Assembly: GCA_964508025.1 (NCBI GenBank)
Contig: CAZDSF010000004.1
Location: 1,625 to 57,967, forward strand
Length of the DNA: 56,343 nucleotides
Direction of reading: 5' to 3'
DNA from: an uncultured Anaerolineales bacterium
GTDB lineage: Bacteria > Chloroflexota > Anaerolineae > B4-G1 > SLSP01
Shown here: piece after piece, positions 1-28,361 of the stretch
How the letters are laid out: each line of letters opens with the position of its first letter
How positions within the stretch are numbered: position 1 is the first letter of the stretch
Notes under the pieces: generated by a model
Told to the model about the DNA's origin: nothing
The model's input: only the letters and a program-made list of their open reading frames with translations
The model's database searches: none
Translations under genes and position numbers: made by a program

Positions 1-70
1 GCACCCCCGGGTCCCGCGGGCGGGGGGGGGGGGGGGGGGGGGCTGCGGGGGAGCGGGGGAGAAAGGGAGT

Positions 71-194
71 TGGGGTGATGGGGTGATGGGGTGATGGGGT
101 GATGGAATACACAAGCACCTTTGGGACAAAATCACCCCGTCACCTTGTCACCTTGTCACCCTGTCTCCCTGTCACCTTGTCATCCCGTCACTTC
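71..194. repeat. Inverted octamer-array hairpin element A: (GGGGTGAT)x4, ~27-nt loop, (GTCACCTT-like)x8
   Basis: GGGGTGAT units at 72, 80, 88, 96; ATCACCCC/GTCACCTT-type units every 8 nt from 131 to 194. Confidence 0.9.
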
Positions 195-532: not shown

Positions 533-959
533 GCTCCGCGTCTTTGTGGACGCCGACGTCATCTTCGCCGGCGCAGCCTCACCGAGCACCCAGGGCGCGA
601 GCCATATCCTCCTGGTGATGAGCGAGCTCACGCTTATCGAGGGCATCACGTCTGAGCAAGCCGTAACCGAAGTCGCGCGCAACCTGGAAGCCAAGTTGCC
701 CACCAAACTGCCGGAATTTCGCCTGCTGGTCAGCCGCGCCCTGCACGTTGTCCCCGATCCCACACTGGCAGAGCTGCGCGCCTGCGCCGGACAAGCCGAC
801 CCCAAAGACCTGCCGTTGCTTGCAGCGGCCCTGCGCGAAGGCTGTCCGTACTTCGTCACCTTCAATATCCGCCACTACTTCCCCACCGGCGCGGCGATTG
901 CGGTTCTCCGTCCAGGGGATTTGATCCTGACGATTCGCCACACACTTGCGGGATTGTGA
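525..959 (+). CDS. PIN-domain (VapC-like) toxin
   Basis: 144 aa; VFVDADV, DPKDLPLL and FVTFNIRHY acidic PIN motifs; 8-nt overlap with the antitoxin. Confidence 0.85.
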   Translation: MSKLRVFVDADVIFAGAASPSTQGASHILLVMSELTLIEGITSEQAVTEVARNLEAKLPTKLPEFRLLVSRALHVVPDPTLAELRACAGQADPKDLPLLAAALREGCPYFVTFNIRHYFPTGAAIAVLRPGDLILTIRHTLAGL

Positions 960-1026
960 CTGGGTGACGGGGTGACAAGGTGACAAAATCACCCCGTCAC
1001 CCCGTCACCTTGTCACCCCTTCACCT
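956..1026. repeat. Inverted octamer-array hairpin element B
   Basis: GTGAC at 956, 964, 972, 980; (A/G/T)TCAC at 988, 996, 1004, 1012, 1020; lies between convergent genes and may act as a bidirectional terminator. Confidence 0.92.
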
Positions 1027-1401
1027 AAGCACCCACGTCTCAGGATGCGTAATCATTCCCACAATCGTGCCCAACATCTCATCATAGGCTTTGTACAACG
1101 GCGCGGCGGTATCGCGGTGCAAATACCCGCACTTCACCGCAAATTCCAGCCACACTTGCGTTTCCGCCGCTTCCGCTTCACAATCTGAGAGCTTGCTGAT
1201 GAAAGCGCGCTCGTAACGCCGCTTACGCCACGCCTCAGCCAGATTCGCGCACACCGAGCGCGACGAGCGGCGGATCTGATCCGTCAGCGAATACGTTTCC
1301 TCCTTCGGGAACCGCTTCGACAGCTCAAAAATCTCCATCGCCGCCGCGAACGCCTTCTGATAGACTTCCAACTCCGTATGCACACTGATTTTCTTGCCCA
1401 T
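1021..1401 (-). CDS. Four-helix-bundle protein (23S rRNA IVP / TIGR02436-like family)
   Basis: 126 aa from MGKKISV; ELEVYQKA..FPKEETYSLTDQIRRSSRSVCANLAEAW..EAAETQVWL; purine-rich RBS before 1401. The ORF-track extension to 1461 is translated repeat. Confidence 0.88.
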   Translation of the reverse strand: MGKKISVHTELEVYQKAFAAAMEIFELSKRFPKEETYSLTDQIRRSSRSVCANLAEAWRKRRYERAFISKLSDCEAEAAETQVWLEFAVKCGYLHRDTAAPLYKAYDEMLGTIVGMITHPETWVLR

Positions 1402-1417
1402 GCTTTCCCCCTTTTCC

Positions 1418-1505
1418 TGACTTGGTGACCTGGTGACTGGGTGACTGGGTGATATTGTCACCTTGTCACCTTGTCACCTGTCACCCAGTCACCCTCGTCA
1501 CCCCA
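1418..1505. repeat. Inverted octamer-array hairpin element C
   Basis: (G)TGAC/GTGAT at 1418, 1425, 1433, 1441, 1449; GTCAC at 1457, 1465, 1473, 1480, 1488, 1497. Confidence 0.92.
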
Positions 1506-4386
1506 CTGGCAGCAACACATACACCCCCAGCACATCCGGCGGGAGATGCGGACGTACATCCACGCGCACGCCCTTGAGCCGGGCCGCCGTCCGCACCCGC
1601 TGATGCGCTTCGAGCAGCGCCGCCCCGCGCGCCTCAGCGACCGCGTCCAGGTGCGGGCGCAGGGCGTCGAAAGCGTCGAGCACGCGCTGCAAGAACTGCG
1701 TCGCTTGTTGCGCGGCGATGTTGGCGGCGGGTTCGGCGCTCAACAGGCTCTCTACCTCGTCCGGCGTCAACCACTGCGCGGCCTCCGGCGCACCAGTGAA
1801 GCCCACCGTTTGGCAATCCTCGGCCAGCAATTCCACCGTTTGCCCATCGCGCTGCGTTACCAGGTGATAGCGCAGGCGCAGGAGCAACAGCGTCGTGCGC
1901 GTGGCAACCGCCCGCGTGCGCATCACGCCGCTGCGCCGGGCCACGCCGTCCAACAGCGGATCGAGCGCGGCATCCAGCGTATAGGCCGCCAGTCCTTCCA
2001 CCGCCGGATGCGTGCGCGTGAGATAGCGCGTCCCCGCCGGCGCGGGCAACTCGAAGCAGGCCGTAAAGCGCTCACTGTTGCCGACCGCTTCCCGCAGCGC
2101 TGCGTGATTGGGCAAGGTGATTTCAACGTGGCGCGGTTTGTGCGCTACCGTCCCACCGTGCAGGCGCACTACCGTCTCCACAAAACGCTGCACATCCACC
2201 CCCGCGCCGATGGCCGCCCGCACCGCGTCCCACTCGCGGGCCACCTCTTCCACCCGGAGCGTCCGCTGCGCAAAGAGCGTGCGCGATTGCTTCTCCCGCG
2301 CCGTCACATTGTCCCATTGCGCGTGCAGATTCTTGTAAACGTCATCGCTCACATCGAAGAGCGAGAGCTGCCGCCCATCCACCGCCGCCTGCCCGCCGCG
2401 CAGCAAGAGCGCGTGCATCAACGCTTGTACCACTTCACCGGTATTGGCCGGGATCGGCACCGAAATCCCCAGCGAACTGCGGATGGTCTTGTGCTTGCGC
2501 AGCAACACATCCAGCACCAGGCCGTCAATCTGGTTATCTATGCCGTAATAGGTCACCGTGCGCACGGTGGGGCTGGCCTGCCCGTAGCGATCCACGCGGC
2601 CCTCGCGCTGCTCGTGGCGAGTGGGATTCCAGGAGAGATCGTAGTGGATCACGGCGTTGAAATGCTCCTGCAAGTTGATGCCCTCGCTCAGGCAATCGGT
2701 GGCGACCAGCACCCGCTGCGGGAACGCGCCCAGTTGCGCCACCCGCTGCTCGCGCTCGGCGGGTGGCAGCAAGCCCGTCACCGCCGCGACTTCGACGCTC
2801 TTGGGCAGCGCCGCGCGCAGCTCCTCCGCCACATACTCGGCGGTGGGGATGAAGCGGCAGAAAAGGATCGGCTGGTAGCCATCCTTGAGCAAGCCTTTCA
2901 CCAGCGCTATCGCCTGGCGGAGTTTCGCGTCGTGCGTCGGGCCTTTCAGCGCTTCGGCTTGACGTGCCATGCGTAAGAGCCTTTGCCGTTGCCCTCCCGT
3001 CATCCCTTCGACTGCGCTCAGGGCAGGCCCGTCACCCTGCCACCCCGTCACCTTGTCACCCTCTCCCCCCGTCACCCCCTCGTACCACGCTCCCGGCGCC
3101 ACATCCACGCTCTCGCCTTCCACGTCATCCAGATCCAGCACGGCGCGCTCCCCGATGAGATCGGCTTCGGCAGCATCCTCGGTTTCCACCGTCGCTGAGC
3201 GCGTGCGCAGCGTTGCCGCGGCAGCCGCCGGGCTGCTCGCCAGACTGCGCAGCAGCGCCAACGCCGACCACCACCGCACCCGCTGATGGTATTGCGTGCC
3301 GCTGGTATCCTGCACCCGCTCGCGGGCGTAGGCCAACACAGTGGCGAACAACTTCTTGGTCTCGTTGCCCAGCGTGTACGTTGCCTCGGCTTCCTCGCGC
3401 GCCGGGAAGATCGTGTCGGCATCCATGTAGGCGCGCACATCGGCCCGGCGGCGTTGCACCAGATGCAGCGCCACCTCGCGCCGGACGGTTTCCTGCGCTT
3501 TGCCGGTGAGGTCATCGGGCAGCCGGGCAAAGTCCGGGCGGAGCAGCGCCAGCAGCGAGCGGAACGCCCCCTCGTCGCCGCTGTGTGGGGTCGCCGTCAC
3601 CAGCAGCAGATGCCGCGCCGGATTCTGCGCCAGCGCCTGGAGCAGTTGATGCCGCAGATGCCGCCCGCCGCGCTGCTCGGCAGAGAAGGCGCAAGTGTGC
3701 GCCTCATCCACAATGACCAGTTCCGGGCAGGTGCGCACAAACTCTTCGCGCCGCCGGGTGGATTTGATGTACTCCGTAGAGACGATGACGAAGGGGTGCA
3801 ACTCAAAGAGCGATTGGCCCACTGCCGTGCCCCGCTCCAGCCGGGCGGCGGTGCTCGCCAGCACCAGTTCCGCCTCGATGTGGAACTTCTCGGCCAGCTC
3901 GCTCTGCCACTGCTCGGCTAGATGCGGCGGGCAGAGCACGGCCAGCCGTTGCACCTCGCCGCGATCCAGCAGCTCGCGGGCGATCAGCCCCGCCTCGATG
4001 GTCTTGCCGATCCCCACATCGTCGGCGATGAGCAGCCGCACGGGGTCGAGGCGCAGCGCCATGAGCAAGGGCACCAGTTGATAGGGCCGGGGTTCGACCG
4101 CCAGCCGCGCAAACGAGCGGAACGGCCCCGCGCTAGAGCGGAAGCCCAGCCGCACCGCATCGCGCAGCAATTGGCACGAGTGGAAATCGCCGGGGCGGGT
4201 GGGGTCGGGCAGATCGAAAGTTGCGGGCTGCACGGCATCGCCTTCCAACGGCAGATACAGCCCCGCGATTTCCCGATCCGTGCCGCCCAGCGGGCGCAGC
4301 ACCAGCCATTCGGCGGAGGATTCGGGTAAGACTACCCATTCGCGTCCCCGCGCGCGGACGAGAGAGCCGACGGTGTAACCGGCCAT
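1498..4386 (-). CDS. SNF2/SWI2-family helicase (DrmD-like, defence-associated)
   Basis: 962 aa; LIADDVGIGKT Walker A, DEAH, LLVTATPH, SEGINLQ, EQREGRVDRYGQ. Confidence 0.88.
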   Translation of the reverse strand: MAGYTVGSLVRARGREWVVLPESSAEWLVLRPLGGTDREIAGLYLPLEGDAVQPATFDLPDPTRPGDFHSCQLLRDAVRLGFRSSAGPFRSFARLAVEPRPYQLVPLLMALRLDPVRLLIADDVGIGKTIEAGLIARELLDRGEVQRLAVLCPPHLAEQWQSELAEKFHIEAELVLASTAARLERGTAVGQSLFELHPFVIVSTEYIKSTRRREEFVRTCPELVIVDEAHTCAFSAEQRGGRHLRHQLLQALAQNPARHLLLVTATPHSGDEGAFRSLLALLRPDFARLPDDLTGKAQETVRREVALHLVQRRRADVRAYMDADTIFPAREEAEATYTLGNETKKLFATVLAYARERVQDTSGTQYHQRVRWWSALALLRSLASSPAAAAATLRTRSATVETEDAAEADLIGERAVLDLDDVEGESVDVAPGAWYEGVTGGEGDKVTGWQGDGPALSAVEGMTGGQRQRLLRMARQAEALKGPTHDAKLRQAIALVKGLLKDGYQPILFCRFIPTAEYVAEELRAALPKSVEVAAVTGLLPPAEREQRVAQLGAFPQRVLVATDCLSEGINLQEHFNAVIHYDLSWNPTRHEQREGRVDRYGQASPTVRTVTYYGIDNQIDGLVLDVLLRKHKTIRSSLGISVPIPANTGEVVQALMHALLLRGGQAAVDGRQLSLFDVSDDVYKNLHAQWDNVTAREKQSRTLFAQRTLRVEEVAREWDAVRAAIGAGVDVQRFVETVVRLHGGTVAHKPRHVEITLPNHAALREAVGNSERFTACFELPAPAGTRYLTRTHPAVEGLAAYTLDAALDPLLDGVARRSGVMRTRAVATRTTLLLLRLRYHLVTQRDGQTVELLAEDCQTVGFTGAPEAAQWLTPDEVESLLSAEPAANIAAQQATQFLQRVLDAFDALRPHLDAVAEARGAALLEAHQRVRTAARLKGVRVDVRPHLPPDVLGVYVLLPVG
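2996..3078. repeat. In-frame octamer array with a nested REP-like unit inside the SNF2 gene
   Basis: Minus strand GGGGTGAC GGGGGGAG AGGGTGAC AAGGTGAC GGGGTGGC AGGGTGAC GGG[CCTGCCCTGAGCGCAGTCGAAG]GGATGAC; encodes GVTGGEGDKVTGWQGDGPALSAVEGMTGG. Confidence 0.85.
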
Positions 4387-5786
4387 CAGCCGACCACCTC
4401 CTGCGGCCCGAAGAGCAATACATCTGGATCATCGGCTGCGCGCGCCTGCAACGCAGCGGTGAACCCGCTCCGGCTGAACAATGGATAATAGAGCCGCCAG
4501 CCGGTAACGTCGCCTTGCCACGCGCGCGCCCGGCGTTGCAGCGCTTCCAGTTCGGGCAGGCCCATAGGTTCATTGCGCCACTTAGCCTCGCCCAGCCAGG
4601 CGATGCGCTGTTGGTAGCTTACCGCTGCCAGATCAATCTGATGGTGCGCATCCCACCAGGAGCCAACCGCTTCGGGCCAGAAGCCGGGCGTGGCTTGCCT
4701 TGCCAGGGTATAGACCGCCGCCCGCGCCAAATCCTCCCAGGTGTAAGCTACAAATTGCTCCCAGGTGGGGCGCAAGACCTGCTCGACCAACCCCGCGCCC
4801 TGCCCCTTCTCGATGGCGCCTGTGTAGGGCAGAATGTACCGTCCCCAAAAACGGATATAGGGGTCGGCGATGTGCCATGTCCCGCGCCGGCGCTGCGTCG
4901 CCGGCGCAATCCCAATGGGCGCGCGATGTGCCACATACCCCGCCCCCTGCAATGTCGAAAGGTAGGTGGGGAGGCTGCTGCGCTCCACCCCGGCTTCCTG
5001 GGCCATCGCGGAGAGGGTGTGATAGCCGTTGGCAATTGCCCGCAGCACGGCGGCGTAATGCCGGGGGTCGCGCAGCTCATCGCGCAACAGCGTCAAGCCA
5101 TCGTGGTACAGGATGTGGGCCGGGTCGAACGCGGTATGGCTCAGGTTCGTCCACAGAGAACGCTCCGGGCGCAACTCGGCCAGATACGCGGGCATCCCGC
5201 CGGTCAGCGCGTAGGCTTCGATCAACTCCACCGGGCTGCGCTCCGGCAAGAAGCCGCGCATCTGCCCCGGCGTCAAGGGACGCAGCGTCAACTGCGCGGT
5301 GCGGCGTCCATAGAGCGGCGCATCGCGGTTGAGCACATCGCGATCCATGACGGACATATAGGAGCCGCACAACACCAGAAACACCTGGGAGTGTTGCAAC
5401 GTTTCATCCCAGAGCTTCTGGATGACAGAAGCCAGCCGCTCGCCGGCGTCGGCCAGATAGGGGTATTCGTCAAGGATTAGCACAAAGCGGCGGTCGGTCG
5501 CCAGCCGCCCCACCGCCTGGAACAATCCCAACCACGAACCATAAGAGCCGGGCGCGGCGCCTGGGCCGTGCTCCGCCTCCCACAGCGCCGCGGAGAGATT
5601 GCGCAACAACGTCTCGGCAGAATCCAGATACGCCAGGAAGTACACGCCGGGCTTATCGGCGGCAAACTCGGTCAACAGCGCGGTCTTGCCCACGCGCCGG
5701 CGCCCGGTCAGCACGATAAACTCGGCTTTGCCTGAAGCGTAGCGTTCCTTGAGCCAGGTCAGTTCTTGTTCGCGGTTGATAAACAT
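4386..5786 (-). CDS. AAA+ ATPase (archaeal-type ATPase_2) with HTH and C-terminal DUF234-like PD-(D/E)xK domain
   Basis: 466 aa; FINREQEL, GRRRVGKT Walker A, LILDEYP Walker B, QIDLAA..LGEAKW; TGATG 1-nt overlap with the SNF2 start. Confidence 0.85.
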   Translation of the reverse strand: MFINREQELTWLKERYASGKAEFIVLTGRRRVGKTALLTEFAADKPGVYFLAYLDSAETLLRNLSAALWEAEHGPGAAPGSYGSWLGLFQAVGRLATDRRFVLILDEYPYLADAGERLASVIQKLWDETLQHSQVFLVLCGSYMSVMDRDVLNRDAPLYGRRTAQLTLRPLTPGQMRGFLPERSPVELIEAYALTGGMPAYLAELRPERSLWTNLSHTAFDPAHILYHDGLTLLRDELRDPRHYAAVLRAIANGYHTLSAMAQEAGVERSSLPTYLSTLQGAGYVAHRAPIGIAPATQRRRGTWHIADPYIRFWGRYILPYTGAIEKGQGAGLVEQVLRPTWEQFVAYTWEDLARAAVYTLARQATPGFWPEAVGSWWDAHHQIDLAAVSYQQRIAWLGEAKWRNEPMGLPELEALQRRARAWQGDVTGWRLYYPLFSRSGFTAALQARAADDPDVLLFGPQEVVG

Positions 5787-5803
5787 GGGCAGCCTCCTGA
5801 TAT

Positions 5804-5847
5804 TTAATGCTTACGATTATGATAATCGTAAGCATTAAGATTGTCAA
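5804..5847 (-). promoter_or_regulatory. TTGACA-17-TATCAT promoter overlapped by a perfect 35-bp palindrome
   Basis: TTAATGCTTACGATTAT-G-ATAATCGTAAGCATTAA at 5804-5838; minus-strand -35 at 5847-5842 and -10 at 5824-5819; GGAGG RBS before the ATG at 5786. Confidence 0.8.
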
Positions 5848-5900
5848 GACACGGCTCACACCTATCGCCGCGCCAAGTGCAGAGTTTCATCCAAGTCACG

Positions 5901-7967
5901 TTACTTTGCAGAGGACGTGCCCTCCCATTCTCCCCCGCACGCGGACGAGAGAGCCGATGGTGCAGGGCACCGGTATTGACCTACTGGGTGGGCGAGAAAA
6001 GCTGGTTTACCATGCTCAAGACCTGTCAAGGTTGGCGTAGAACCAGCGGCAGGAAGACCTGGGACAACCACAGCAATAGCCCATCCATCCTCATCTCGGC
6101 TGTCGCCTAGATAAGTGGCGTATGCCAGAGCATCACCGCCTAAGCTCACCTTGACCACAAACGCATCACTCGAACCGAGCAGTGCGCTCCCGATAACTCC
6201 TGGTGTGACAGGGAAATCAAACGATGTCGTCATTCCAGTAACATAGGCTGCCCCGTTGCCATCTGTCGCAATATCCTGGGGTTCGTCATGTCCTGCGCCC
6301 CCCAGGAAAGCTGAATAATCCAGCGCGCTACCAGCTGGAACCAGCTTGGCTACAAATCCATCGCCATAACCGCCATTCAGGGTGGTATCAAAGGCACCGT
6401 CTGTGACAGGAAAGGCTGCGGATTGCGTGAAGCCGGTGACGTAAGCTGCCCCAAGCGCGTCCACAGCAATACCGGTACCAAAATCCTGGCTACTCCCCCC
6501 CCCCAGAAAGGTCGCATAAGTCAAAGCGGCCCCATTCGCAGCTAGTTTTACCACAAAGGCATCACGATCACCATTATGCACAACATCAAAGGCTCCCATT
6601 GTGGTGGGAAAATCGGTGGAATAGGTTTGCCCCGTGATAAAGACCGCGTTGTCGCTACTCACTGCGATGCTAGTGCCCTGATCAGAGCCCGTCCCGCCCA
6701 CGAACGTAGCATAAACCAGAGCGTTTCCATTGGGAGACAATTTGGCGCCAAAAGCATCCTTTCCACCGTTGTGGGTGGTATCAAACGCTCCTGGCGTAAC
6801 GGGAAAGTTAGTGGATTCAGTGAGGCCAGTGACATAAGCCGCTCCCGTCGAATCTATCGCGATTGCTCAACCCTCATCCAGAGTATTCCCGCCGAGGTAA
6901 GTTGCGTAGGCTAGCGCGTTGCCGTCCGGCGTAACCTTGACCACAAAACCATCATAGTAGCCGTTAGCCACAATATCGAAAGCCCCTGGCGTAGTGGGGA
7001 AGTTGGAGGAATTGGTGTAACCCGTCACATAGGCTGCCCCACTTTCATCCACCGCAATGTCAACACCCACGTCCCAGCTGCTTCCGCCTAGGAAGGTGCT
7101 ATAAGGCAATTGGGATGGATTGCTTTGACCTTGAGGAGCAAATGCAGGGGTGATTTGAGTGGACGAGGCGACAATAGGACACGTAATGTCAAATTTCGCA
7201 ACATCCACGGCTGAAATCGCAGGCCAGATCTTCGGCATAGCGTCCGCAACTACTGGCAGTGGTAGGATGTAGTCGCCGATCACTGTGCTAAGACGTACCT
7301 CCCCGGCTCCAGTGAATTCCGCAGCCTCCGCGCCTTCGATGTGCAATTGCACCTGGCCTAAATCCGCGCCAGGGTGGATATGCACGCGCTGCACCCATTG
7401 CCCATTCTCGCTAGTCACTTCCAGGTCAATGCCAGGGTACAAATCCACATAGCGCACGCCGCTCCACACCGGCACATCGGGTCGCCACCCGTCGGGGTCG
7501 TTGCCGAGGAAGTAGGAGACGGTGGTTTCCAACGGGGCAAAGGGTTCCAGGCGGGCGTGGGGATTGGCGTTGGGGAAACTCAGGCGCAGGTTGATGCCCT
7601 GGCGATTTTCGCTTGCGGATGGCGCTTCCGGGTCGAAGGGGAATTCCAGTCGCCGCCCGCGCGTTCTGCTCTCTGGCGCGGGCGGCTCCATCAGCGTGAT
7701 CCAGAGCGCGTCCTCGGCGAGCCAAATTGTCCCATTGCCGCCGCGCACCTGAAAGCGCGCACCATCAGCGAATTGCCCGACATTCTTGATGAACATCACC
7801 GGAGAATTGCGCAGAGTTGCATTCACGTCCACGTTTGCGGTAACCGGCGCAGCAGAGAGCGCTGTTATATCCTCTTCAGGTAGTGCGGCCGCCAGCGGGC
7901 GTCCCACTCCTGGCATAAGCAGGGCCAACAACAACATCACATTGAGCCATAGTGTGCGAGCTTTCAT
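5901..7967 (-). pseudogene. Secreted SBBP-repeat (beta-propeller) protein with an in-frame nonsense codon and a truncated C-terminus
   Basis: Signal peptide MKARTLWLNVMLLLALL; repeated YSTFLGGS..D.G..IAVD..GAAYVTG.T.S.NFPTTPGAFD units. ORFs 6867-7967 and 5901-6740 are in the same frame, separated by TGA 6869-6867 (DEG*AIAID vs EDGWAIAV in a later repeat). Confidence 0.8.
5924..5964 (-). repeat. Degenerate duplicate of the SNF2 gene 5' end
   Basis: Aligns to 4335-4377 with a 2-nt gap and ~5 mismatches; 17-nt identical core GCGGACGAGAGAGCCGA. Confidence 0.8.
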
Positions 7968-7986: not shown

Positions 7987-10900
7987 CTAAAGTTGATTGT
8001 TACCAAACACATACTTATGTTGCTCACAAATCCCCGCCCAGGTCTCTTTTCGATACCCAAAGCGCAGCACCGTGTACCCCGCATCCATCAGGCAGTCCGT
8101 GATCTGCACGTCCTTCGCCTGCACGTCTGGTTGGTCATGGTCGGGGCCGTCAATATACACGGCCACCCGCGTCGCGGTGTAGAGGAAGTCCGGGCGGGTG
8201 TGACAGGCCGCCACTACCACTTGCGCCTCATCCGGCAAGCGCAGGTTGCGCTCCTCCAGGAACGCCAACCAGGCACGCTCCAGGCTGCTTTCGCAGAGCG
8301 CCTGAAGACGGCGCAGGTGCCCGGCGCGGCTTTCCCCCGTGGGGCTGGCCTGTACTACGCTGTATTTCAAGATCAGCAATAGATCACGGATGGCCTGCCG
8401 GTCGAGCCGACTATGATCCGGCTGATTGGCGTAGCTCATCAGGCAGTCGTAGCACGCCGCCTCGCAATCCTCCTGCGCCCCTGGCGCGTGGTGCAAATCG
8501 GCCCCGGTCTCCGGGTCGAAGTGGCATAAGGCCAATGCCTCGCGCGCCACGGCGGGCCAGGCTGCCGGGTCTTCCACCAACTGCCGCAGCACGCCCGCGC
8601 CGCCCTCAGCAGCTTCGTAGAACAGTAACATATGCCGATGCTCGGCATCGGGCAGCGGCTCAGCGGCGAGTTCGTTATCCTCCAATTGGTAGCGCACCTG
8701 GATGGCGTTCTTGAGTGCCGGTTGCAACGAGGCCATCACTTCCAGGGAGAGCGCCTCGGTCGGTTCGAGCAAGAGACAGTTGCGGCGATCCTCCACAAAG
8801 GGAATCACCCGTTCGGTCCGCGGGCTGAGTGGGTCTTCGGGGTCGCTTTCCACCGCGTCTTGATTAGCGGCCCAGTAGCCATTCTCCACATCCAGAATGA
8901 AACCGTATTCCTCTTTGTTCTTGCGCCGCCGCCAGCCCAGATTGATACGCCACAGCGTTGCAGCATCGCCGTAAGTAAGCCGGAAGGTGACATGGTGACT
9001 TGGTGATGGGGTGGGGGGGGGCGGGGGGGCCGGGGCCCCGCCCCGACAAGGTGAAGAGGTGAATCTGTCACCTTGTCACCAGCGCCACCTTGTCCCCGTA
9101 TCACCCCGTCACCTTGCCACCTTGTCACCCCATCACCTATCACTACTTCCGCTGTTATACACCCGGACCGATCCCCGCGTTGGGCAAAGCGCACGCCCGT
9201 CTTGAGATCATACCCCATCCGCGTCCGCTCTTCCTCATCGCTGTTGATGCGGTCACGGCGCTTGGTAACGACATTCTGCATCCTAAAGAGCCCCGTCAAT
9301 GGCAGGCCCAGGGCGCGTTCACAATAGACACAGCACTCTGGCCCTGGATCGTCGCCATCTAGCGGATGTAAGTGGCCGCAATGCGGACAGAACTTAGCCC
9401 GGGTGGTGAGCACCTCCTCGCTATCTACAGGCAGGATCACCTTGTTGATCAGGTAGCGCGAGCCTTCGTGATAGACAATGCTGCGCGGCCCGAACTCCGC
9501 AATCGCCAGGAAGCGCGGGCGCGAGAGAAACTCGTCGCGTTCTTTGCGCCGTTTGCGCCCCGGAATGTAGGCGGAAAGCGGCAGACGCGGGAAATTGTAA
9601 CCCGGCAGGAAACCCTCGCTGGCAAAGTAGCGATAGCTGTAGAAATCGGATTGCGTCGCTCGTTGGAGGTCCTCGCCGGTGAGCAATTCCATCTGCGCCT
9701 CAGCTTCGGCGCGCAACCGCTTGGCGAGCTGCTTGTCTTGCGGGCTGCGCGAAATATCCTGGATGATGCCATGCTGTACCGCGCGTTGCTGCCAGGCGGC
9801 GCGATACAGGGCGCGCCAGCGCTCGCAAGCCTGGTCGAAGTCTTGCGCTACCTGGTCGAGCGTCTGCTGCAGCCAGTTGTCATGATACCAGGCTGCCTGC
9901 TGCAAGTCCTCCGCCAATGTGACAAAGATGCGGCCCAGGCGGCGCGCAGCCCGCTGCCGGGCATGTGGATCCTGAAGGTCGTGTTGCACTGAGGGCAGTA
10001 GCGTCAACGGCGGCGTTCCCTCTGTCAGCGTCAGGTCGAGCAGGTCTTTCAGCGAATGCCCCAAGGATAACCCAGCCTCTGCCAACCACACGGCATGGAC
10101 GTGCGCGCGCACCAGGTCTTCGTTCGCCAACTCCAGGCGCGGCGGCGTCACTGCTCCGGCCACCATGCGCTCTGGCCGTTTGAAGAAATACTGGTCGTGC
10201 GGACTGCCGGTGGTGCAATAGGTGAACACCAGCGCCGGTTGTCCGCTCCGCCCAGCGCGTCCACTGCGCTGCGCGTAGTTCGCCGGCGTGGGCGGCACGT
10301 TGCGCAGGTTCACGGCATTGAGCTGCGAGATGTCCACGCCCAGTTCCATGGTGGGAGAGCAGTACAGCACCGGCAAATCGGCGTTGCGGAAACGCTCCTC
10401 GCGCTCCAAACGCTCTTCGTAGGGTACCTGGGCCGTGTGCTCGCGCGCCTCAATGCCCTGAAGTTCAGCGGCCACATCCCGGTAGAAGGTGGTAAAGAAG
10501 GCATTGCTCCGCCCGCCCTGGCTGGATTGGCGCGGCGAGCGGATAGGGTCATAGAAAGGCGTGCCGTCGCCCGCGCACCAGAGCAACGCCGAAGCCGGCA
10601 CTTGATAGCCCGTCGCGTGGGGATCAAGTTTGCTTTCCACTACCTGCTGGGTCAGACTGGCGACTTCCAGCACACGCAACAGGTCGGAGATGACCTGCCC
10701 GGCATCGGCCTGGCTGAGTTTTTCGGCCAGCGCCGGAAAGGCGCCCTGGCGGCGCAGATACATCCCGAAGCCGCCGCGCGGCGAGAGATACAAGTTGCCG
10801 CCGTAATCGCCGCGTTGCGCCGCGCGCGGGAACACGATTTTGGCATGTTCCAATACCTCGTTTTCGTCAATCGCCCACGGCTCGATCAGGTACTGGCTGC

Positions 10901-13316
10901 TCTGCTGCTGGATGCGTTCTTGATGCGCCGGATCGAGATAATCCACTTTGAGCGCCAGTTCCCGGCGCAGATAGTCCAGCAGCGTCTTGGCAATGTGGAA
11001 CCGCTGCTCGGGCGTGGCCGTCGCCAGCGCCGGGTGCAGGGCCGACCATTCTGCTTCCGCCGCGCACAGGGCGTCTAGTGATTGATACCGAATACTCAGC
11101 AGTCCACACTGCTCCAGGTTCGGCGCCGTGACACGCCAGCCGCGTCGCAGATCCCGGTAGAGGCGATAAGCCAGCACTTCCCGCAGCGCCCGCTCGGTGT
11201 CATCGCGGGCTTTGAATTTGACCTCCGGGTTCACGGCGTAATACGCCAGGGGCAACCCCAAGGCTACAAACACACGCCCGGCCAGCCGGTCATGGGTTAA
11301 CCCCTCCGGGCCGGCCGCTATCACCGCGCGATGCAGAGCCGCGCGCAGCAAGCCCACTTCCACAAAGTCATTGAAGTGCCCGGCTTGCAACGAGGCATCC
11401 TGGCGGTTGTCGGTGAAACTGAGCAGTTTCCGCGCCTTACGCTCCAACGCCTCGTCGCGACGCAGCGCTCGCAGCGCGGAGAGACTCAGAATTGTGGTGG
11501 CCGTGCTCCGCCCCTCAGAGGAAAGTTCCGCCAGTTTGCCGAAGTCCGAACGCTCCCGCCCGCCGTAGGCTACACCGCAATGCAGGCAAAAGCGGAACGG
11601 CGCCTGGAGGAAGTGACATTCCAACCCCGTCGCCACGCTCTCACCCGCTGGGTTGACCGTGACCGGCGTCGGCAAGCGGCGTTTGAGGTGGCTCTTGACC
11701 TTGAGCGTCCCATCGGGACGGATATCCAACCAGTCTTCGGGGAGCCGCGCCAGCACCGCCTCCGGATCCTCCGGCCAGGGGGCCGCTGGGTTGAGATATA
11801 GAAAGCCGCTTTCACTATCCTCCTCACCACTCTGATCACCCAGGTCGCGGGGGATGTAACCGGTCGCACCGCTGTCGGGAGCGGGTTGCTGACGCACCAC
11901 ATAGTAAGGTTGGCCGCATTCCCGGCAGAAAGCCAGCGGCAATAGCACCCGCGTCCGGTCGCCCGGTACATACTGCTGGCCGCGCGTGGTGATGTAGCGG
12001 TTATCGGGCGATTCCAAGGAGGCGTAGACTGTGTCCCCACGGCTGATGAACTGGTGCAAACGGAAGGCAAAGGCCGGGAAGCCCGTTTCGGGGTTTTCGG
12101 CGGCATACCCGCCTAACAACGTGGCAGCGATCGCTGCGGCACACCGTGCTTCGGGTTGCCGGGTAAGCGCCGCCAATTCCTGCGCCGCGCCTGTCTCGCC
12201 GGTGATGCTGCGGGGTTGCGCCCGCCGCAGGCGTCCGCTCTCCGGCTCGGTGGTCAGGCCAAAGACGGATTCGATCCAACTTGCCAATGGTTGCTGCACG
12301 AAATCCGCAAAGTTCTTCGAGGGCTGAGCAGCGGAATCTGCAACTTGGGCGGTCAGCGCCGCTCGATAAGTCGGATCTTGGAAGTCGCGCTCCGGCGTGA
12401 CCCGGCGTAACGTCTCGCCGATCACCCGTTCCGGTTTGACCACTGCCCCAAACAGGCGGCTGGCGACCTCGGCGATAGTCTGCTGCTGTTCACTGAAGGT
12501 CCCGCCCGCTGCCAGCGTTGCCGAGGTGCCGATACACTGCAAAGCTGCATTCTCACTCACGTCCCGCACCCGCCGTACCAGAAGCGCCACGTCCGCGCCT
12601 TGACGCCCCCGATAGGTGTGTAATTCGTCCAATACCACATAACTCAGCCCCCGCAACCCGGCCACTATGTTCTGCTCGTGCGGGCGGGTGAGGAGTAATT
12701 CCAGCATCACATAGTTAGTCAACAGGATGTCCGGCGGGTTGACGATGATGTCTTGCTTTTCGGCATCGGATTCCTGCCCGGTATAGCGCCGAAACGTCAC
12801 CGGCGGCTGACCCTGGGGGAAGCCCTGCCCGAGGAATTTCTCCAGCTCGTTCAACTGACTGTTCGCCAGTGCATTCATCGGATAGACAATCACGGCGCGG
12901 ATGCCCTTGCCGCTGCCACGGCGTAGCACGGCATCCACAATGGGGATAATGTAAGCCAGGCTCTTGCCCGAACCCGTGCCAGTGGTGAGCACATAGTTGT
13001 CGCCGGTTTGCGCGGCCTGGATGGCTTCAAGTTGGTGCCGGTGGAGGTGCAAGGGGCGGGCTATTTGGCCCGGCGTCTTCAGTTGAAAGATCTCCCGACA
13101 CAGTGGGTGTAGTGTTCCATCCTGCACGAGCGCTGCTATCCCTGCGCCTGGTGCGAAGGCCGGGTTGAGTTGAATCAGGGGTTCGGGCCACAACAACCCG
13201 GCTTCCAATTCCGTGGTAACAGCAGTGGCAATCCGGGGATCGCTAATGTGGATGAAACTCTGAATGTAAGCGGCGTAATCCTCAACCAGGCGTTGCCGTA
13301 GCGCAAAGACATCCAT
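7987..13316 (-). CDS. Large YprA/DrmAB-like DEAD/DEAH-box helicase with DUF1998 and a C-terminal DUF559/Vsr-like nuclease; frameshift near 9005-9070
   Basis: TGTGSGKS, DELH, SAT, EHTAQV, CSPTMELGVDI..NYAQRSGRAGR and CxxC pairs in 8805-13316. The frame of ORF 7987-8889 is open upstream (..VTFRLTYGDAATLWRINLGWRRRKNKEEYGFILDVENGYW..) and carries CEAACYDCLMSY and RPDF..AVYIDGPDH..LRF. Confidence 0.85.
8984..9140. repeat. Inverted octamer-array hairpin inserted inside the DEAD-box helicase gene
   Basis: Minus strand AGGTGATG GGGTGACA AGGTGGCA AGGTGACG GGGTGATA CGGGGACA..AGGTGACA, then TTCACC..[C-rich garble]..CATCACC AAGTCACC ATGTCACC. Confidence 0.85.
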
Positions 13317-13901: not shown

Positions 13902-14204
13902 TTGATGCTGACTCGCTTGTATCCCAGTACACGCCCATTGTACCAGCGCGTGATGCAAGTCTTGGCCCGTTTGAACGTGGATACAGTCTGCACGCCCACG
14001 CAACTGGCATTAATCGGATTGTACCTCGCCGGGTTGATCTTGCTGGATGTCAATCAAACTAACACTCGGATCACACAATATCTGCCGGCGCGGTGTTATG
14101 ATGCGCTCAATTGGCTGTTACGGGTGATGCCGTTTTCCAGTCGCGTCCTGCTGGCTTGCTGCGCCCAGTGGGTGCAGCGGCGCGGGCTTCTGCGCTCCCT
14201 GTGA
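13902..14204 (+). mobile_element. Transposase N-terminal remnant (IS701/IS4-like)
   Basis: LYLAGLILLD..T.TRI..YLPARCYDALNWLLRVMP resembles DDE-transposase N-termini recalled from Chloroflexota; truncated at ~100 aa. Confidence 0.5.
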
Positions 14205-14614
14205 AGCTCGTGGTGCAAAGCGCTTGCTTCGTCAACGGGGTGACCGCGCCAACCCCGGACGAAATCCTTGTTTGCGCTTCAGAGGTGCTGTGCGAGGCGT
14301 AGCGTGATCTCGGTCAGTGACTTGCTACGAAAGCCAGTGCTTGTGTCAAAGCGCCGCCATGGGCAGTAGCATTGATCCTCAATCGCAATCGTATTGTTGC
14401 CACACGCCGCACGAGCATTGGCAGAACGAGCCCCACCTGCTAGATCCGAGATGACGAGATGACTGGCGGCTTGTCAATAATCGAAAATGTGGTATAAGAA
14501 AGAAGTTAAAAGCTTAGGGACCAGTTGCGAGACAGCTGCCCCAAAACTCCGCGAAATAGGGGTAAATGGGTTTTGTTGTGTGCTTGCTCCTAACTGGGCA
14601 CTTAATCTTTTCCT

Positions 14615-14687
14615 GGCCCGCTAGCTCAACTGGCAGAGCAGTTGACTCTTAATCAATTGGTTACAGGTTCGAGTCCTGTGCGGGTCA
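14615..14687 (+). tRNA. tRNA-Lys(CTT)
   Basis: GGCCCGC/GCGGGTC acceptor stem, D arm GCTCAACTGGCAGAGC, anticodon arm GTTGA-CTCTTAA-TCAAT, T loop GGTTCGAGTCC; 73 nt, CCA not encoded. Confidence 0.95.
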
Positions 14688-14703
14688 TACGTGGTTAAGC
14701 CAG

Positions 14704-14736
14704 GCGCCCCATCTTGTAGGATGGGGCGCTTTTTGT
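14704..14736 (+). terminator. Intrinsic terminator downstream of the tRNA
   Basis: GCGCCCCATC / GATGGGGCGC 10-bp stem followed by TTTTTGTT. Confidence 0.75.
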
Positions 14737-14749
14737 TGGGTAATTCTGA

Positions 14750-15055
14750 CCAGAAACTGCCAGTGCATTACCGATAGTGATAAGCAATACTGATTTTTGA
14801 CGATTTTATAGATTGCTATACTGAATGGGTTCAGCCTGGTCAAGCGGCTTTTGGGCTTTGGGCCTCGCCTTATGATTGGCGTCTTGAAGAGTATACCGCA
14901 AACTGCAGCAGGTAAACCGGGGCAATGGGCGTCAGCGGAAAGACCAGACAATAAGCCAGGTCGCAACCGCTGGCAAGCAGGCCGAGGATGGCCGTCCCAC
15001 GATGGGAGGGCAGCAGCATAAGCGAAAAAAAAGCAGTCCTGCCAGGGCAACCGCT
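14750..15055 (-). mobile_element. Possible degenerate transposase C-terminal remnant (IS4-like)
   Basis: LPWQ..and a basic RRGPKPKSR..YKIVK tail reminiscent of IS4-type C-termini; weak. Confidence 0.3.
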
Positions 15056-15161
15056 AGAGTGTATTCCAGGATTCAGTCTGTTTTATGAGTACATCGTAAA
15101 TCGTTCAAGAAATGGATGGGGGTTACGCTGCGCGAGTACCGTCAGGATTCGGCCCATCTGT

Positions 15162-15932
15162 CTATGGGCTAGTTTTTGCGCCGATGTCCAGCACACCGAG
15201 CAAAATCGGTAATAGCCCCACCCCATTGCTGATGAAGTGCATGACCAGCCCGGCGGAACTGTTGTTCAGGTACAGGACGGCGAAGGTCAGGCCGAGCGAG
15301 AGCGGCAGCAGGTTGAGCAAATCCCAATACTTGAAGCCGTGAAAGAGCGTCCACAGCAGGGCGTGGATGAGCAATGTCCCGCCGGCAAAGGCCAGTTGCT
15401 GGCGGGGCAGAATCAGTCCGCGCCACCAGAATTCCTCTCCCACCACGTTTATCACCAGAAGAAGCACCGAAAAGCAGAACAGGAACCAGTTGCCGCGCAA
15501 CCCGCCGGTGGCAGCGTTGATGGTCTCTTGCGTCCAGACCGTTTGCGGGTTAACGAAGGCGGGTAGGTTGGCGGGCAACGTGATGATTCCCTGCCCAATC
15601 AGCCAACCAGTGAGCCGCGTCATCAGCAGGTAGAGCGCCATCTCGACGGCGAAAATCCCGGCCACAATCAGCAGGTCACGCAGTGAGAGTGGACGATAGT
15701 TGAAGCGCGCCATCAACGCCGACCAGGTGAACGGGTGGCCCTCCAGCCGGTAAGCCACAATCGCAGCGATCAGCATCGCCAGCAAGGGCAGGCCCAGGCC
15801 GAGCGCGTAGGCGTAGTAGGGCAATATGCCACGCTGGATGAGAGCGGGCATCAGCAGGTAAAAGCCCGCCGCCAGCGCCAGCGCTGGGATGCCAAAATAG
15901 AGCAAGGAAAGCTTGAAGCTGATAGGTTTCAT
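15162..15932 (-). CDS. CPBP (Abi/CAAX) intramembrane glutamic endopeptidase
   Basis: GEEFWWRG, LFHGF, VMHFISN motifs; hydrophobic. Confidence 0.85.
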   Translation of the reverse strand: MKPISFKLSLLYFGIPALALAAGFYLLMPALIQRGILPYYAYALGLGLPLLAMLIAAIVAYRLEGHPFTWSALMARFNYRPLSLRDLLIVAGIFAVEMALYLLMTRLTGWLIGQGIITLPANLPAFVNPQTVWTQETINAATGGLRGNWFLFCFSVLLLVINVVGEEFWWRGLILPRQQLAFAGGTLLIHALLWTLFHGFKYWDLLNLLPLSLGLTFAVLYLNNSSAGLVMHFISNGVGLLPILLGVLDIGAKTSP

Positions 15933-15947
15933 TGATCGCTGCCCGCC

Positions 15948-16796
15948 TCAAACAAGGTACAGCGTGGGTAACAACACTGCCACCGCCAGCAGCAGGCTCA
16001 TTCCAGCAACCGCTATCCAAGCCGGAGTCAGGGTTCTGGGCAGGGCAACCGGGTTAGGCAAAGGCTTGTGGACATCCAGCCAGTAGGCGGCCAGGAAGAA
16101 TCCCCAAAAGAAGCCGACATAGCCAAACCAGTATTGGAATGCTACAGTAAATGTTCCCTGACCGCCGAGCGGATGCCAGATTGCCAGGGTGGTAAATAAA
16201 ATATTGATGGCGAGATAGGGGAGGAGCAGCAGGGGCAAGGCAATCCGCGCGCGTTCGGCTTTATCGCTGGCATCAACAGCAAAGCGCAAAGCAGAGCGCG
16301 CCAGCCAGAAAAAGCCCCACAAGATTCCGGCTACACCGACCAGCAGGATGGGAATACGCACCGCCCATGAGCCGCCCAACATCTGGATGACTTTTTGCCA
16401 GTCCCCGACCTGCTCGCTGCCGGGCTGGTAGAACAGCGGGTCCACGAACAGATAGCCAAAGCCCATAAACAGGTTGTAGGCTGCGAAATACATCCAGAAC
16501 TGGGCTGGCATGGCGCGCTGCTGGCGGGCAGTTCGACCGAAGAGGAAGACTCCCAGAAAACCAAGCAGGATATTCAACAGCGCGGGAACAGCCTCCACCA
16601 GCACTGTGCCGGTTTCATTCGGCGCGCCGGGCCAGTCCCACAGCACGGCAAACAGGTTGAATGCCTGCCACTCCGCGCCGACCAGCACGGCGGTAATGCC
16701 ATGAAAGGCTTCGTGCAATATCTGCGCCCCAAGCGCGCCCAACAGGGCGGCGGTCAAGGCATTAATCAAGATGGGGGAATGTAACTTTGTATTCAT
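15948..16796 (-). CDS. Membrane protein with HExxH (M50-like metallopeptidase)
   Basis: ILHEAFHG in the first TM segment; multiple TM helices. Confidence 0.6.
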   Translation of the reverse strand: MNTKLHSPILINALTAALLGALGAQILHEAFHGITAVLVGAEWQAFNLFAVLWDWPGAPNETGTVLVEAVPALLNILLGFLGVFLFGRTARQQRAMPAQFWMYFAAYNLFMGFGYLFVDPLFYQPGSEQVGDWQKVIQMLGGSWAVRIPILLVGVAGILWGFFWLARSALRFAVDASDKAERARIALPLLLLPYLAINILFTTLAIWHPLGGQGTFTVAFQYWFGYVGFFWGFFLAAYWLDVHKPLPNPVALPRTLTPAWIAVAGMSLLLAVAVLLPTLYLV

Positions 16797-16825
16797 GTTT
16801 CCTCCTGCTAAAACTATTATAGTGA

Positions 16826-17701
16826 TTATGATTGCGCCAGCCAGGTTGAAACCTGCCGGTGATAGTCCGCCGGCCGTTCAAGGAAGGGCAGATGTCCCGC
16901 GCCAGGGAGCAAGACCAGGCTGGCTTGCGGGATGTGTTTGGCAATCAGGGGGGATTGGGTGGGCGGGACGATGGGGTCATGGTCGCCGGCAATGAGCAGG
17001 CTCGGGGCCTGGATGGCGTTCAGTTGCGGGGTGATGTCAATCCCTGGCATGTGACGGAAATAGGGCAGGATGGCGTCAAGGTCGAGTCGGCGGTAGGGCG
17101 GGAAATTACGCTGGACGGCTTCGGGCAGGTCGGGATGGGCATACAGCGCATGCGCGTCGGCGGCGTAAAAGCGCATTGCCCAGCGATAAAGGGAGGCGTG
17201 CGGCATGAGCGAGCGAAACATGACCTTGAAGTATGTCTCACCAACCCAGCCCAGGCGGACGGCGCGCTGGTAGAGTCCCAACATGCCACTCCAACACCCA
17301 TGCGCAAAACCGGAGACGCTGATTAGACGGCGAACCCGCTCCGGGTAACGGGCGGCAAGGGCCAGGGCGCAGAATCCGCCTGTCGAATGACCGACCAGGC
17401 TGACGGGGCGTTCGCCGACCAGTTGGCGGATTCCGGCTTCGAGCAGGCTGACCAGCCGTTCAGCGGTCAATCTCCCGGATTTGAATTCATCCGGCGCAAG
17501 AGCCGGGAAATGCCCAGGCAGGCTGAGGGCGTAACACGGGCCAAACTCGAGCAGATAGGGGGCCGGGTTAACCTGCCAGAAAGAAATCGAACTGGTGATG
17601 CCATGCAACAGGATAATCGGCTCGCCGGGCGCGCCGGGGTTCAGGCAAATCGCGGCCAGTTGGTGGCCGTCAACGGAGATGCAGACAGGTTGGCTTGACA
17701 T
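16826..17701 (-). CDS. Alpha/beta hydrolase
   Basis: LLHGIT, GHSTGG nucleophile elbow, GDHDPIV, GAGHLP. Confidence 0.88.
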   Translation of the reverse strand: MSSQPVCISVDGHQLAAICLNPGAPGEPIILLHGITSSISFWQVNPAPYLLEFGPCYALSLPGHFPALAPDEFKSGRLTAERLVSLLEAGIRQLVGERPVSLVGHSTGGFCALALAARYPERVRRLISVSGFAHGCWSGMLGLYQRAVRLGWVGETYFKVMFRSLMPHASLYRWAMRFYAADAHALYAHPDLPEAVQRNFPPYRRLDLDAILPYFRHMPGIDITPQLNAIQAPSLLIAGDHDPIVPPTQSPLIAKHIPQASLVLLPGAGHLPFLERPADYHRQVSTWLAQS

Positions 17702-17709
17702 TGGTGCCC

Positions 17710-19039
17710 TTACTTCGGGGTGCGCTTCAAAATCTCGCGCACGATGTACCAGGCGGTAATCATGGCGGTTGACGCGCCGCCGGGGTTGAAGACGTAATGA
17801 TCAACGGTGTAAAAATTCTTGAGCGGCAGGTCTTTGGAAAAATTGAAGCGCGGCGCGAGCGCGGGATTCCAGTTCCAGCCAGTGATGGCACCCTGCCAGT
17901 TGGCGGTGTAGCGTTCGTAGGTCAGCGGCGATGCGGAATCTTGCGCTTTGATATGGGCGCGCAAGCCGGATAGGAATTCCTCGGCGCGGGTGATGAGTTC
18001 ATCGGCGACGGCGGCTTTGCGGGTCTGGTAGGCGACGTCATCGCCTTTGAGCGGCTCCCAATTCTGGTAATCATCCAACCAACCGACGAACAGGCTGTGT
18101 TTGCCAGCCGGGGCAATCGAGGGAGCATCCTTGTCCAGCCAGACAACCTGGATGGTTTTCCCATGGGCGCAAGTGAAGATGACGTGCGGCTCATGGAAAC
18201 GTTGAAAGGCGCGCTCCAGTTCTGGGCTGGCGCGCAAGCCCAGGAAAACGGCAAAGACCGGCTCGGAAGGGCGCGCCGCTTCCAATTTGGCAACCAGGCC
18301 GGGGGTGAGATGCTCACGCCCGAGCAACTCGAAGCAGGTGTGACGCAAATCGGCAACGGAGATTACCCAGTCCGAGTCGCGCGTCGTCCCATCCCCTCGC
18401 GTGATACCGGTTGCCCGGCTATTTTCCATCCGAATGCGCTGCACCGGCCTTCCCAGGTGAACTTCGCCGCCGTGTTCGCGGATAAGTCGGACGAAGGTGT
18501 TGGCGAAGGCTTGCATGTCGTCAGCCGGGGCCCAGGTATCGTTGAAGTACGAAATCCACATGCCGAGGCTGTTTTGGGCGGGTATGACCGGGTAAGCCAG
18601 TTCGTCGAGCATTTGGCGCAAGGCCGGATCGCTGAAGTGGCGGGCGTGCAGGCTGACATTGGTCTGTCCGCGCGCGACCCACGAGGCCCAGGGCATGAGC
18701 GGATGTTTGATGAGCAGGTTCAGCCAACTCATCCCGCACCTGCAACGCGCTGCGCAGGGCAACGTCGTGTTCGCCCCAACTCATCTGGTGGCCAACATGC
18801 AAGAACTTGCGTTTGCCTTCCAGCCCCAGCTTCCGCAGAATCGGGAAGACGATGCCGTTCGAGGTGATGGAGGTTGGCCCGGCTGGAAAGGTGAAACCGT
18901 CTCGCACGAAGGATGAGATATAGCCGCCGGGGAGCATGTGCTGTTTGTATACGTCCACCTTCAGCCCGGCGCGGGCGAGATAAGCGGCGGCGGTCAGTCC
19001 CGGCCATACTGGCGCAATGATGGCCACGGTTTCAGGCAT
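17710..19039 (-). pseudogene. Phytoene-desaturase-like FAD oxidoreductase, disrupted
   Basis: N-terminal half (GLTAAAYLARAG..PGGYISSFVRDGFTF) and C-terminal half (SPLTYERYTAN.QGA..GW) are in different frames, joined near 18722; Rossmann motif scrambled. Confidence 0.75.
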
Positions 19040-21885: not shown

Positions 21886-22026
21886 GTCAAATTGCCTGTT
21901 TTCAAGGGTTGTGCTACACTAATCTCGTGAGCGGCTGTCATATCGCCTTGAAAGTGTCAACGGCGTTGCCAACTCGGAACTCTCAACTCACAACTTTCAA
22001 CTATTCTTGGAGGAGGTACCAACATA

Positions 22027-23502: not shown

Positions 23503-23610
23503 GGGAGATGGGGTGATGGGGAAATGGGGTGATGGGGTGATGGGGACGCCTCCATCCATTCGATTCCTCGCCAACACACCAATACGCTCATACGCCAACA
23601 CGGTAACACA
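23503..23610. repeat. Intergenic octamer arrays (TGGGGTGA-type, then CCAATACG-type)
   Basis: ~5 units of GGGGTGAT-like sequence at 23503-23547; degenerate CCAACACA/CCAATACG/CTCATACG/CCAACACG at 23571-23610. Confidence 0.7.
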
Positions 23611-28341: not shown

Positions 28342-28361
28342 GATTTGTTACCTGTTACTCA

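Follow-up and report, generated by a model that had tools for sequence, protein, structure and literature searches.

How can a tandem repeat with a unit of eight nucleotides, which brings a stop codon into frame once in every three units, be carried within a gene that is read through it? The question is raised by a 56,343-nucleotide stretch of DNA from an uncultured Anaerolineales bacterium (contig CAZDSF010000004.1 of assembly GCA_964508025.1, positions 1,625 to 57,967 of the forward strand; that whole stretch is here termed the window). In it a gene for a SNF2-family helicase of 962 amino acids (1498..4386, minus strand; open reading frame with Pfam and PADLOC matches) has within it six units of the octamer GGTGACNN, at 3029..3076 when read on the coding minus strand, and these are predicted to be translated in frame. 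The answer that we consider very likely is that 3029-3076 is a one-armed copy of the dispersed GGTGACNN repeat of this lineage, resident in a functional SNF2 gene of the DISARM/Dpd type and translated as a Gly/Asp/Val/Thr-rich piece of a disordered linker.

Taken in coding direction, 3076 to 3029, the units read GGTGACGG GGGGAGAG GGTGACAA GGTGACGG GGTGGCAG GGTGACGG. The T of their TGA core falls in codon phases 1, 0, 2, 1, 0 and 2 respectively, and so an in-frame TGA is possible in units 2 and 5 only. Unit 2 has GGA in place of the in-frame TGA (plus strand 3064-3066, Gly441), unit 5 has TGG (plus strand 3040-3042, Trp449), and the remaining four of the six retain GTGAC. This is the pattern that a preliminary description of the DNA had given, and the coding-strand reading bears it out. 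The extent then assigned, 2996-3078, stands in part. The array itself occupies 3028-3078, where Tandem Repeats Finder gives a period of 8, 6.4 copies, 72% matches and an additional 24-nucleotide superperiod, and where the 17-residue insert peptide GVTGGEGDKVTGWQGDG (residues 437-453) is encoded. Positions 2996-3027 (minus strand) are instead the remainder of the lineage-specific linker, GPALSAVEGMTGGQ, with one degenerate unit, GGGATGAC, and not a clean octamer array; the GP.LSAVEG piece of GPALSAVEGMTGGQ appears to resemble the ‘SAV[DG]G’ peptides derived from heptamer arrays in two related loci, L011 and L012. The predicted products of reading through the array are the tryptic peptide VTGWQGDGPALSAVEGMTGGQR and also ...APGAWYEGVTGGEGDK.

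Might the likeness to a repeat be coincidental, or merely compositional, in a Gly/Asp-rich spacer that evolved in place as a native low-complexity linker? Acidic Gly-rich linkers, e.g., QEGEEQP, which is encodable by GAG GGT GA-type codons, are ancestral at the site, and a short GEGVAGGE linker is present in loci where arrays were not detected. Against this stands the exactness of the GGTGAC core at strict 8-nucleotide spacing, which codon shuffles never produced: when the codons of the same helicase gene were shuffled 20,000 times and GTGAC was scored per 8-nucleotide register over six units, not one shuffle reached three or more, against the four observed, and the best, 477 of the 20,000, had two. 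Nor would a native spacer be expected to deviate in its in-frame units always by one step from TGA, to occur with arrays in the same loci only, or to have identical ‘translated array’ peptides as counterparts in unrelated proteins and phyla. We regard such an origin as barely credible.

Is the pattern confined to this one gene? A tally was made over seven non-redundant loci of the narrow Anaerolineae clade to which the window belongs, and it took in every in-gene array that lies in sense orientation. TGA is kept in none of 17 in-frame units (GGA in 12, TGG in four and CGA in one, each replacement a single mutation away from TGA), in 41 of 44 out-of-frame units, and in 134 of 159 intergenic and antisense units. 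Thus in the sense arrays examined every third unit, where TGA would be in frame, has been substituted by GGA, TGG or CGA and the others are canonical. Outside the linker the helicase has a ratio of nonsynonymous to synonymous substitution (dN/dS) of 0.08-0.11 in comparison with five relatives (dS 0.22-0.80); judged by these ratios, the host gene is functional and under purifying selection. The earlier proposal that selection has kept the frame open gains from both the tally and the ratios.

Where in the protein does the peptide lie? In Pfam matches the SNF2-rel_dom domain (residues 116-287, 4.8e-10) is followed by Helicase_C (496-602, 1e-17), and an AlphaFold2 model built from a 60-sequence alignment (mean predicted local distance difference test, pLDDT, 76; predicted template-modelling score, pTM, 0.74) has between them a coil at residues 419-463 (2998..3132, minus strand), bounded by helices 405-417 and 463-479, with pLDDT below 50 and no secondary structure. 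In the model, then, the insert sits in the middle of a predicted disordered linker that joins the two ATPase lobes, much as the preliminary description had it in placing the peptide in a loop between helicase domains. That it should be a lineage-specific gap in homologues had also been anticipated, and is what the alignment gives. The 120 best homologues are all of Anaerolineae type, and about 110 of them have a short acidic linker between APG.QE and RERLL; GD.VTGG-type peptides are limited among these 120 to the query and P0001, P0002, P0003 and P0009, and P0004, P0007 and P0008 have just one unit, in the degenerate form GEGVAGGE.

At the DNA level 93 related loci were compared. GGTGAC/GTCACC arrays are confined to clade loci of at least 85% identity, and the more distant loci, about 70 in number, have none; conservation of the peptide in genomes free of arrays, which would have spoken for a different origin, was not what this comparison found. 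In a neighbour-joining tree from which the linker was left out, P0009, with its octamer-type linker, is basal to the clade, and array-type linkers are found also in several sub-clades; the SNF2 array is therefore probably ancestral to this narrow clade. With dS reaching 0.8, the insert is, on such a reading of the tree, an inheritance within the clade and not a recent event in the source genome.

The period of 8 invites another thought, namely that the tract is a contingency locus, a slippage-prone on/off switch of a defence helicase in which gain or loss of a single unit shifts the frame. Phase variation is classically associated with defence and restriction genes, and the neighbouring large helicase, considered below, does shift frame inside its own array, which contains G/C runs. 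The contingency loci of restriction–modification and other defence genes resemble the present tract in that a short tandem repeat lies within a defence gene and its unit length is not divisible by three. Theirs, however, are perfect and frame-switching, whereas the SNF2 tract is degenerate (the 72% matches given above, and identical neighbouring units never exceeding two). The DNA of the relatives reads with a 24-nucleotide coding period, GGT GAC NNG GTG ACA GGG GGA CAA, i.e., G-D-x-V-T-G-G-Q, and this stop-free superunit favours in-frame changes; the clade alleles read as DNA differ in copy number by multiples of three bases, all of these are in frame, and no frameshifted SNF2 allele was present among the relatives’ contigs examined. 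A degenerate tract with every allele in frame is no classical contingency tract, and we think a switch of this type decidedly improbable.

Rather less improbable, though still unlikely, is adaptive diversification, in which the repeat would be kept as a hypervariable linker, e.g., for tuning the spacing of the lobes or for escape from phage inhibitors. P0002 and P0006 are 97% identical outside the linker and yet their linkers are unrelated, one of octamer type and the other a 36-nucleotide repeat with heptamers. P0005 and P0006 have at the linker another repeat family, with heptamer arms (CCGACNN)n and (NNGTCGG)n and a 21-nucleotide period, and in L011 (10110-10221 and 11755-11869) and L012 (2360-2451) the SNF2 linker carries heptamer arms together with a 36-nucleotide triplicate; in L011 the linker heptamers recur on both sides of the gene for a 23S_rRNA_IVP protein (IVP gene) immediately downstream. 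Several genes of one defence island carry arrays. By these comparisons the linker is a recurrent landing place that seems to have received short arrays repeatedly. However, given the high mutability of repeats, variability of the linker needs no selection to explain it, disorder is predicted for the segment, and arrays are found also in a housekeeping gene, mnmG, and in a protein kinase gene.

Several facts weigh against taking the SNF2 array to be a resident copy of a dispersed repeat, and they deserve to be set out together. The copy is one-armed, without an inverted arm or hairpin potential (RNA fold z +0.69), nor could element ends, a target-site duplication or a transposase be identified for it. 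The sister lineage, L004 and L013, has one degenerate 24-nucleotide unit, in its GEGVAGGE linker, at loci in which arrays were not detected, and this unit may be either what decay has left of an array or a seed present in the ancestor. Common descent links many of the 17 in-frame units, which therefore do not count as separate events, and, as loss of in-frame TGA is demanded by any open frame, it is by itself no proof of outside origin. What is informative is the combination of one-step replacements, untouched neighbouring units and protein sequence that is conserved and in frame to either side of the array; the presence of the repeat in the gene at all is also non-trivial. The proposal that a repeat invaded the gene is accordingly kept in part: the repeat belongs to a dispersed family and is lineage-specific, and either insertion or growth from a seed in place may account for it. 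Entry could have been by copying or insertion from another array, or by nucleation on a chance GGTGA-like string of codons.

Other genes of the island bear on that choice. The large DrmA/B-like helicase gene of the window (7987..13316, minus strand; DEAD, Helicase_C and MZB domains) has a second in-gene array at 8986..9139 (minus strand), palindromic and made of octamers with G/C runs at the centre, whose in-frame units are TGG and GGA and whose fold z is -5.0. The reading frame shifts inside this array, and it is for this reason that the helicase is split into two open reading frames, 8805..13316 (DEAD, Helicase_C) and 7987..8889 (MZB, DUF559); the shift could be a sequencing error, the mark of a pseudogene or a phase-variable switch. 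The insertion site, as read from an alignment, is a turn, AEV..G..LA.LTYG, which aligns without gaps in the majority of some 60 distant orthologues; it is empty in L004 and L018, whereas L001, L010, L011 and the window are longer there by 25-35 residues. The empty site in L004 reads GGTGATAAGGTGATA, which looks like a seed and so counts for a seed model, though by the tree it could equally be a footprint left after loss.

The methylase of the relatives points in the other direction. In L001 the Eco57I-type methylase gene (13933-18780) has four in-frame arrays, at 14284-14339, 14995-15042, 15528-15664 and 17875-17914, which are insertions relative to the orthologues in L004, L010 and L013. Where site 4 is filled the flanking codons are replaced, and the empty alleles show no seed, which counts against a pure seed model. 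At one methylase site three orthologues have three different palindromes, among them, in L004 (site 2), a 34-nucleotide hairpin with two perfect 15-nucleotide arms; site 1 in L010 has a further octamer family, GCGAATCA. Within one defence island, then, at least three genes are affected at at least seven sites. The scan that had been suggested for peptides of the GDKVT/GDGVT type came out in favour of the earlier reading: the motif is present also in the large helicase of the window and in the methylase of relatives.

Nor is the phenomenon restricted to Chloroflexota or to defence genes. One MnmG/GidA of the Phycisphaerales (L155 3899-5878, minus strand; Pfam GIDA 3e-158) has a palindromic GGTGAC array with TGG at the in-frame unit, located at a turn on reading of the alignment, and in a Gemmataceae Ser/Thr kinase (L186 4801-7428) such a palindromic GGTGAC array lies between the HRDIKPGN catalytic loop and DFG, with AGA-type units throughout its sense arm.

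What is the protein that carries the SNF2 array? The PADLOC DpdE model PDLC02853 matches residues 3-961 against a profile of 985 positions (1.5e-249), and the DrmD model PDLC02621 matches too (4.8e-86); on these profile matches its assignment to the defence helicases of the DISARM (defence island system associated with restriction–modification) DrmD or Dpd DpdE type holds, and with it the earlier description of the host as a defence protein. Its nearest solved relative by sequence is Escherichia coli RapA, with which both ATPase lobes align (query 112-285 and 557-607) and in whose alignment the array-bearing inter-lobe linker has no counterpart; RapA, which serves to recycle RNA polymerase, does not belong to the defence proteins. 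In relatives the SNF2 gene is accompanied by a 1,750-residue DEAD/Helicase_C/MZB helicase, a 1,400-1,600-residue Eco57I-type methyltransferase and a gene with a faint PLD match, a set that is, by its predicted domains, a DISARM-like island. L001 has all of the DISARM-type neighbours, the Eco57I-type methylase included and PLD by a faint PLDc_2 match; in the window the large DEAD/Helicase_C and MZB gene is present though split, and the methylase and PLD genes are outside, where the methylase would be expected beyond position 1. The 4386-7967 interval, between the large helicase and the SNF2 gene, is a variable slot within the island, its cargo here being SBBP beta-propeller genes and an ATPase_2/DUF234 protein, and in the matching slot of relatives (L001, L004, L008, L011, L012, L013) CcbP, a PKD/M23 peptidase, LRR, or AbiEi/AbiEii. 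Next to the island, at 14614-14688, is a tRNA-Lys(CTT) gene, and it is at tRNA genes that genomic islands typically integrate.

The SNF2 array is of the same repeat family as the intergenic hairpin arrays of the window. Their typical layout is (GGTGACNN)n followed by (NNGTCACC)n, giving long RNA hairpins (z -6.6 to -7.1), and one such, at 1416..1502, abuts the helicase stop codon: the stop TGA at 1498-1500 falls within a GGGGTGAC unit of this downstream array, which therefore starts exactly at the end of the gene. Another hairpin array of the GGTGACNN octamer lies at 954..1039, on the far side of an IVP gene (RNA fold -50.8 kcal/mol, z -7.1), and at 56..192, after a run of about 25 G, there is an intergenic inverted pair, (TGGGGTGA)4 ... 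(GTCACCNN)8 (RNA fold z -6.6). The sole GGTGA-type array beyond the first 9.2 kb of the window is one-armed, intergenic and composed of 5.4 copies of GGGTGATG (23503..23545). Beside arrays there are G runs and (GGGGTGAT)4 tracts, at 18-42 (the run of about 25 G mentioned above, near the start of the window), 71-105 and 9008-9035, which are, by sequence, candidate G-quadruplex-type motifs resembling ciliate telomere octamers. Other short tandem families occur at 21970-22002 and 28286-28413, with heptamers CAACTCT and TTACTCA, the 14-mer TTACCCGTTGCTCA and the octamer GGGCAGGG.

The IVP gene of the window (1021-1461, minus strand), for a four-helix-bundle, bAvd-like protein, stands between the arrays at 954-1039 and 1416-1502. 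Others are in L007 (4474-4893), L008 (7746-8150), L098 (423-854), L096 (3550-3966), L107 (4102-4464) and L011 (11898-12302). Every IVP gene seen is flanked by inverted short tandem arrays, the unit of which differs: GGTGACNN, GGTAATG, GAGACTAG or CCGACAA. The window protein has 70% identity to one encoded on a contig of a metagenome-assembled genome of Pleurocapsa, a cyanobacterium, which suggests a hairpin-flanked cassette moving between phyla. Are arrays in general collapsed IVP cassettes? That notion was not adopted, as an IVP gene was present in three of 120 array-bearing genome loci (8 kb per locus), and an inverted partner was found within 1.5 kb for 37 of 259 arrays, the majority being one-armed.

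How widespread is the repeat? A scan for four perfect units in one genome per species gave matches among which those listed include Chloroflexota, Planctomycetota, Bacteroidota, Cyanobacteriota, Verrucomicrobiota, Acidobacteriota and others, and 34 stretches of viral contigs match an octamer array. A synthetic translated-array peptide had one short match in a collection of 5.8 billion proteins, too little to be informative. No Rfam family matches the arrays, the tRNA being the sole match in the window, and a literature search found no description of GGTGAC/octamer arrays or of IVP-flanking repeats of this kind. Assembly artefact was considered and rejected because the arrays recur in independent JGI, ENA, NCBI and Logan assemblies.

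Is there precedent? Rickettsia palindromic elements (RPEs) are repeats that have entered protein-coding genes in frame (Ogata et al. 2000, via PMC10969869). They too are dispersed repeats, normally intergenic, that occur within open reading frames with the frame kept and the peptide at a place that the fold tolerates, they are present in some and absent from others of close relatives, and several unrelated genes are hit; an RPE differs in being a single element of about 150 bp that already has an open frame (PMC10969869). The octamer array consists of tandem 8-nucleotide units and changes length by slippage, it is not palindromic in its SNF2 copy, it has no known boundaries, and, as the canonical octamer puts a stop in one frame per 24 nucleotides, each third unit must be edited. 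Of the phenomena described, the in-frame insertion of RPEs is the closest. The heptamer arrays of cyanobacteria, the short tandemly repeated repetitive (STRR) sequences reportedly treated by Mazel and colleagues in 1990, are likewise said to be arrays of 7-8 nucleotide units, dispersed, intergenic and often in inverted pairs able to form long hairpins; they differ in unit sequence, period and host phylum, and we know of no description of them as translated with frame-specific purging of stops. On a Dolichospermum contig heptamer arrays flank a 23S_rRNA_IVP gene in the layout that the octamers have round the IVP gene of the window. Repetitive extragenic palindromic (REP) sequences, bacterial interspersed mosaic elements (BIMEs) and REP doublets forming hairpins (REPINs) are also abundant, intergenic and hairpin-forming, and possibly selfish. 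To our knowledge REPs have no described tandem octamer substructure and are not typically translated, and no transposase of the RAYT type (REP-associated tyrosine transposase) was seen in the window.

By what steps might the present state have come about? If the SNF2 array is a resident copy of the dispersed repeat, it would have been acquired before the clade diverged. A stop-free block of three units (24 nucleotides, 8 codons), GGTGACNN GGTGACNG GGGGACAA, encoding G-D-x-V-T-G-G-Q, would then have arisen, after which the array could lengthen or shorten in 24-nucleotide steps by in-frame slippage or unequal recombination. Selection on the helicase would purge alleles in which a TGA falls in frame or whose length is not divisible by three, and continued turnover may hold the out-of-frame units canonical despite a dS of up to 0.8. 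The peptide would be a tolerated passenger, a flexible spacer and not a functional module; on the sequence evidence to hand no function beyond that of a tolerated spacer is demonstrated for it.

A broader view would have arrays such as those of GGTGACNN constitute a cross-phylum, self-propagating and concertedly evolving class, possibly kin to the inverted arrays that flank IVP genes, which routinely colonises gene loops in frame with purging of stops and is a general, previously undescribed source of linkers and loops for which defence islands would be a hotspot. This is speculative and we advance it as a possibility that is doubtful at present. There are consequences for annotation: arrays can break genes, as in the split large helicase of the window, and in their stop-free orientation can yield spurious long open reading frames. 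The signatures GDKVTGGQ, from one orientation, and HPVTPSPS, from the other, are usable for mining proteomes. For the helicase and its relatives the meaning is more immediate, as the locus offers a concrete route from junk-like repeat DNA to protein sequence: provided that the stop is lost from each third unit, a gene can retain a tandem repeat whose unit length is not divisible by three, and the repeat can then expand in 24-nucleotide blocks, lengthening the linker.

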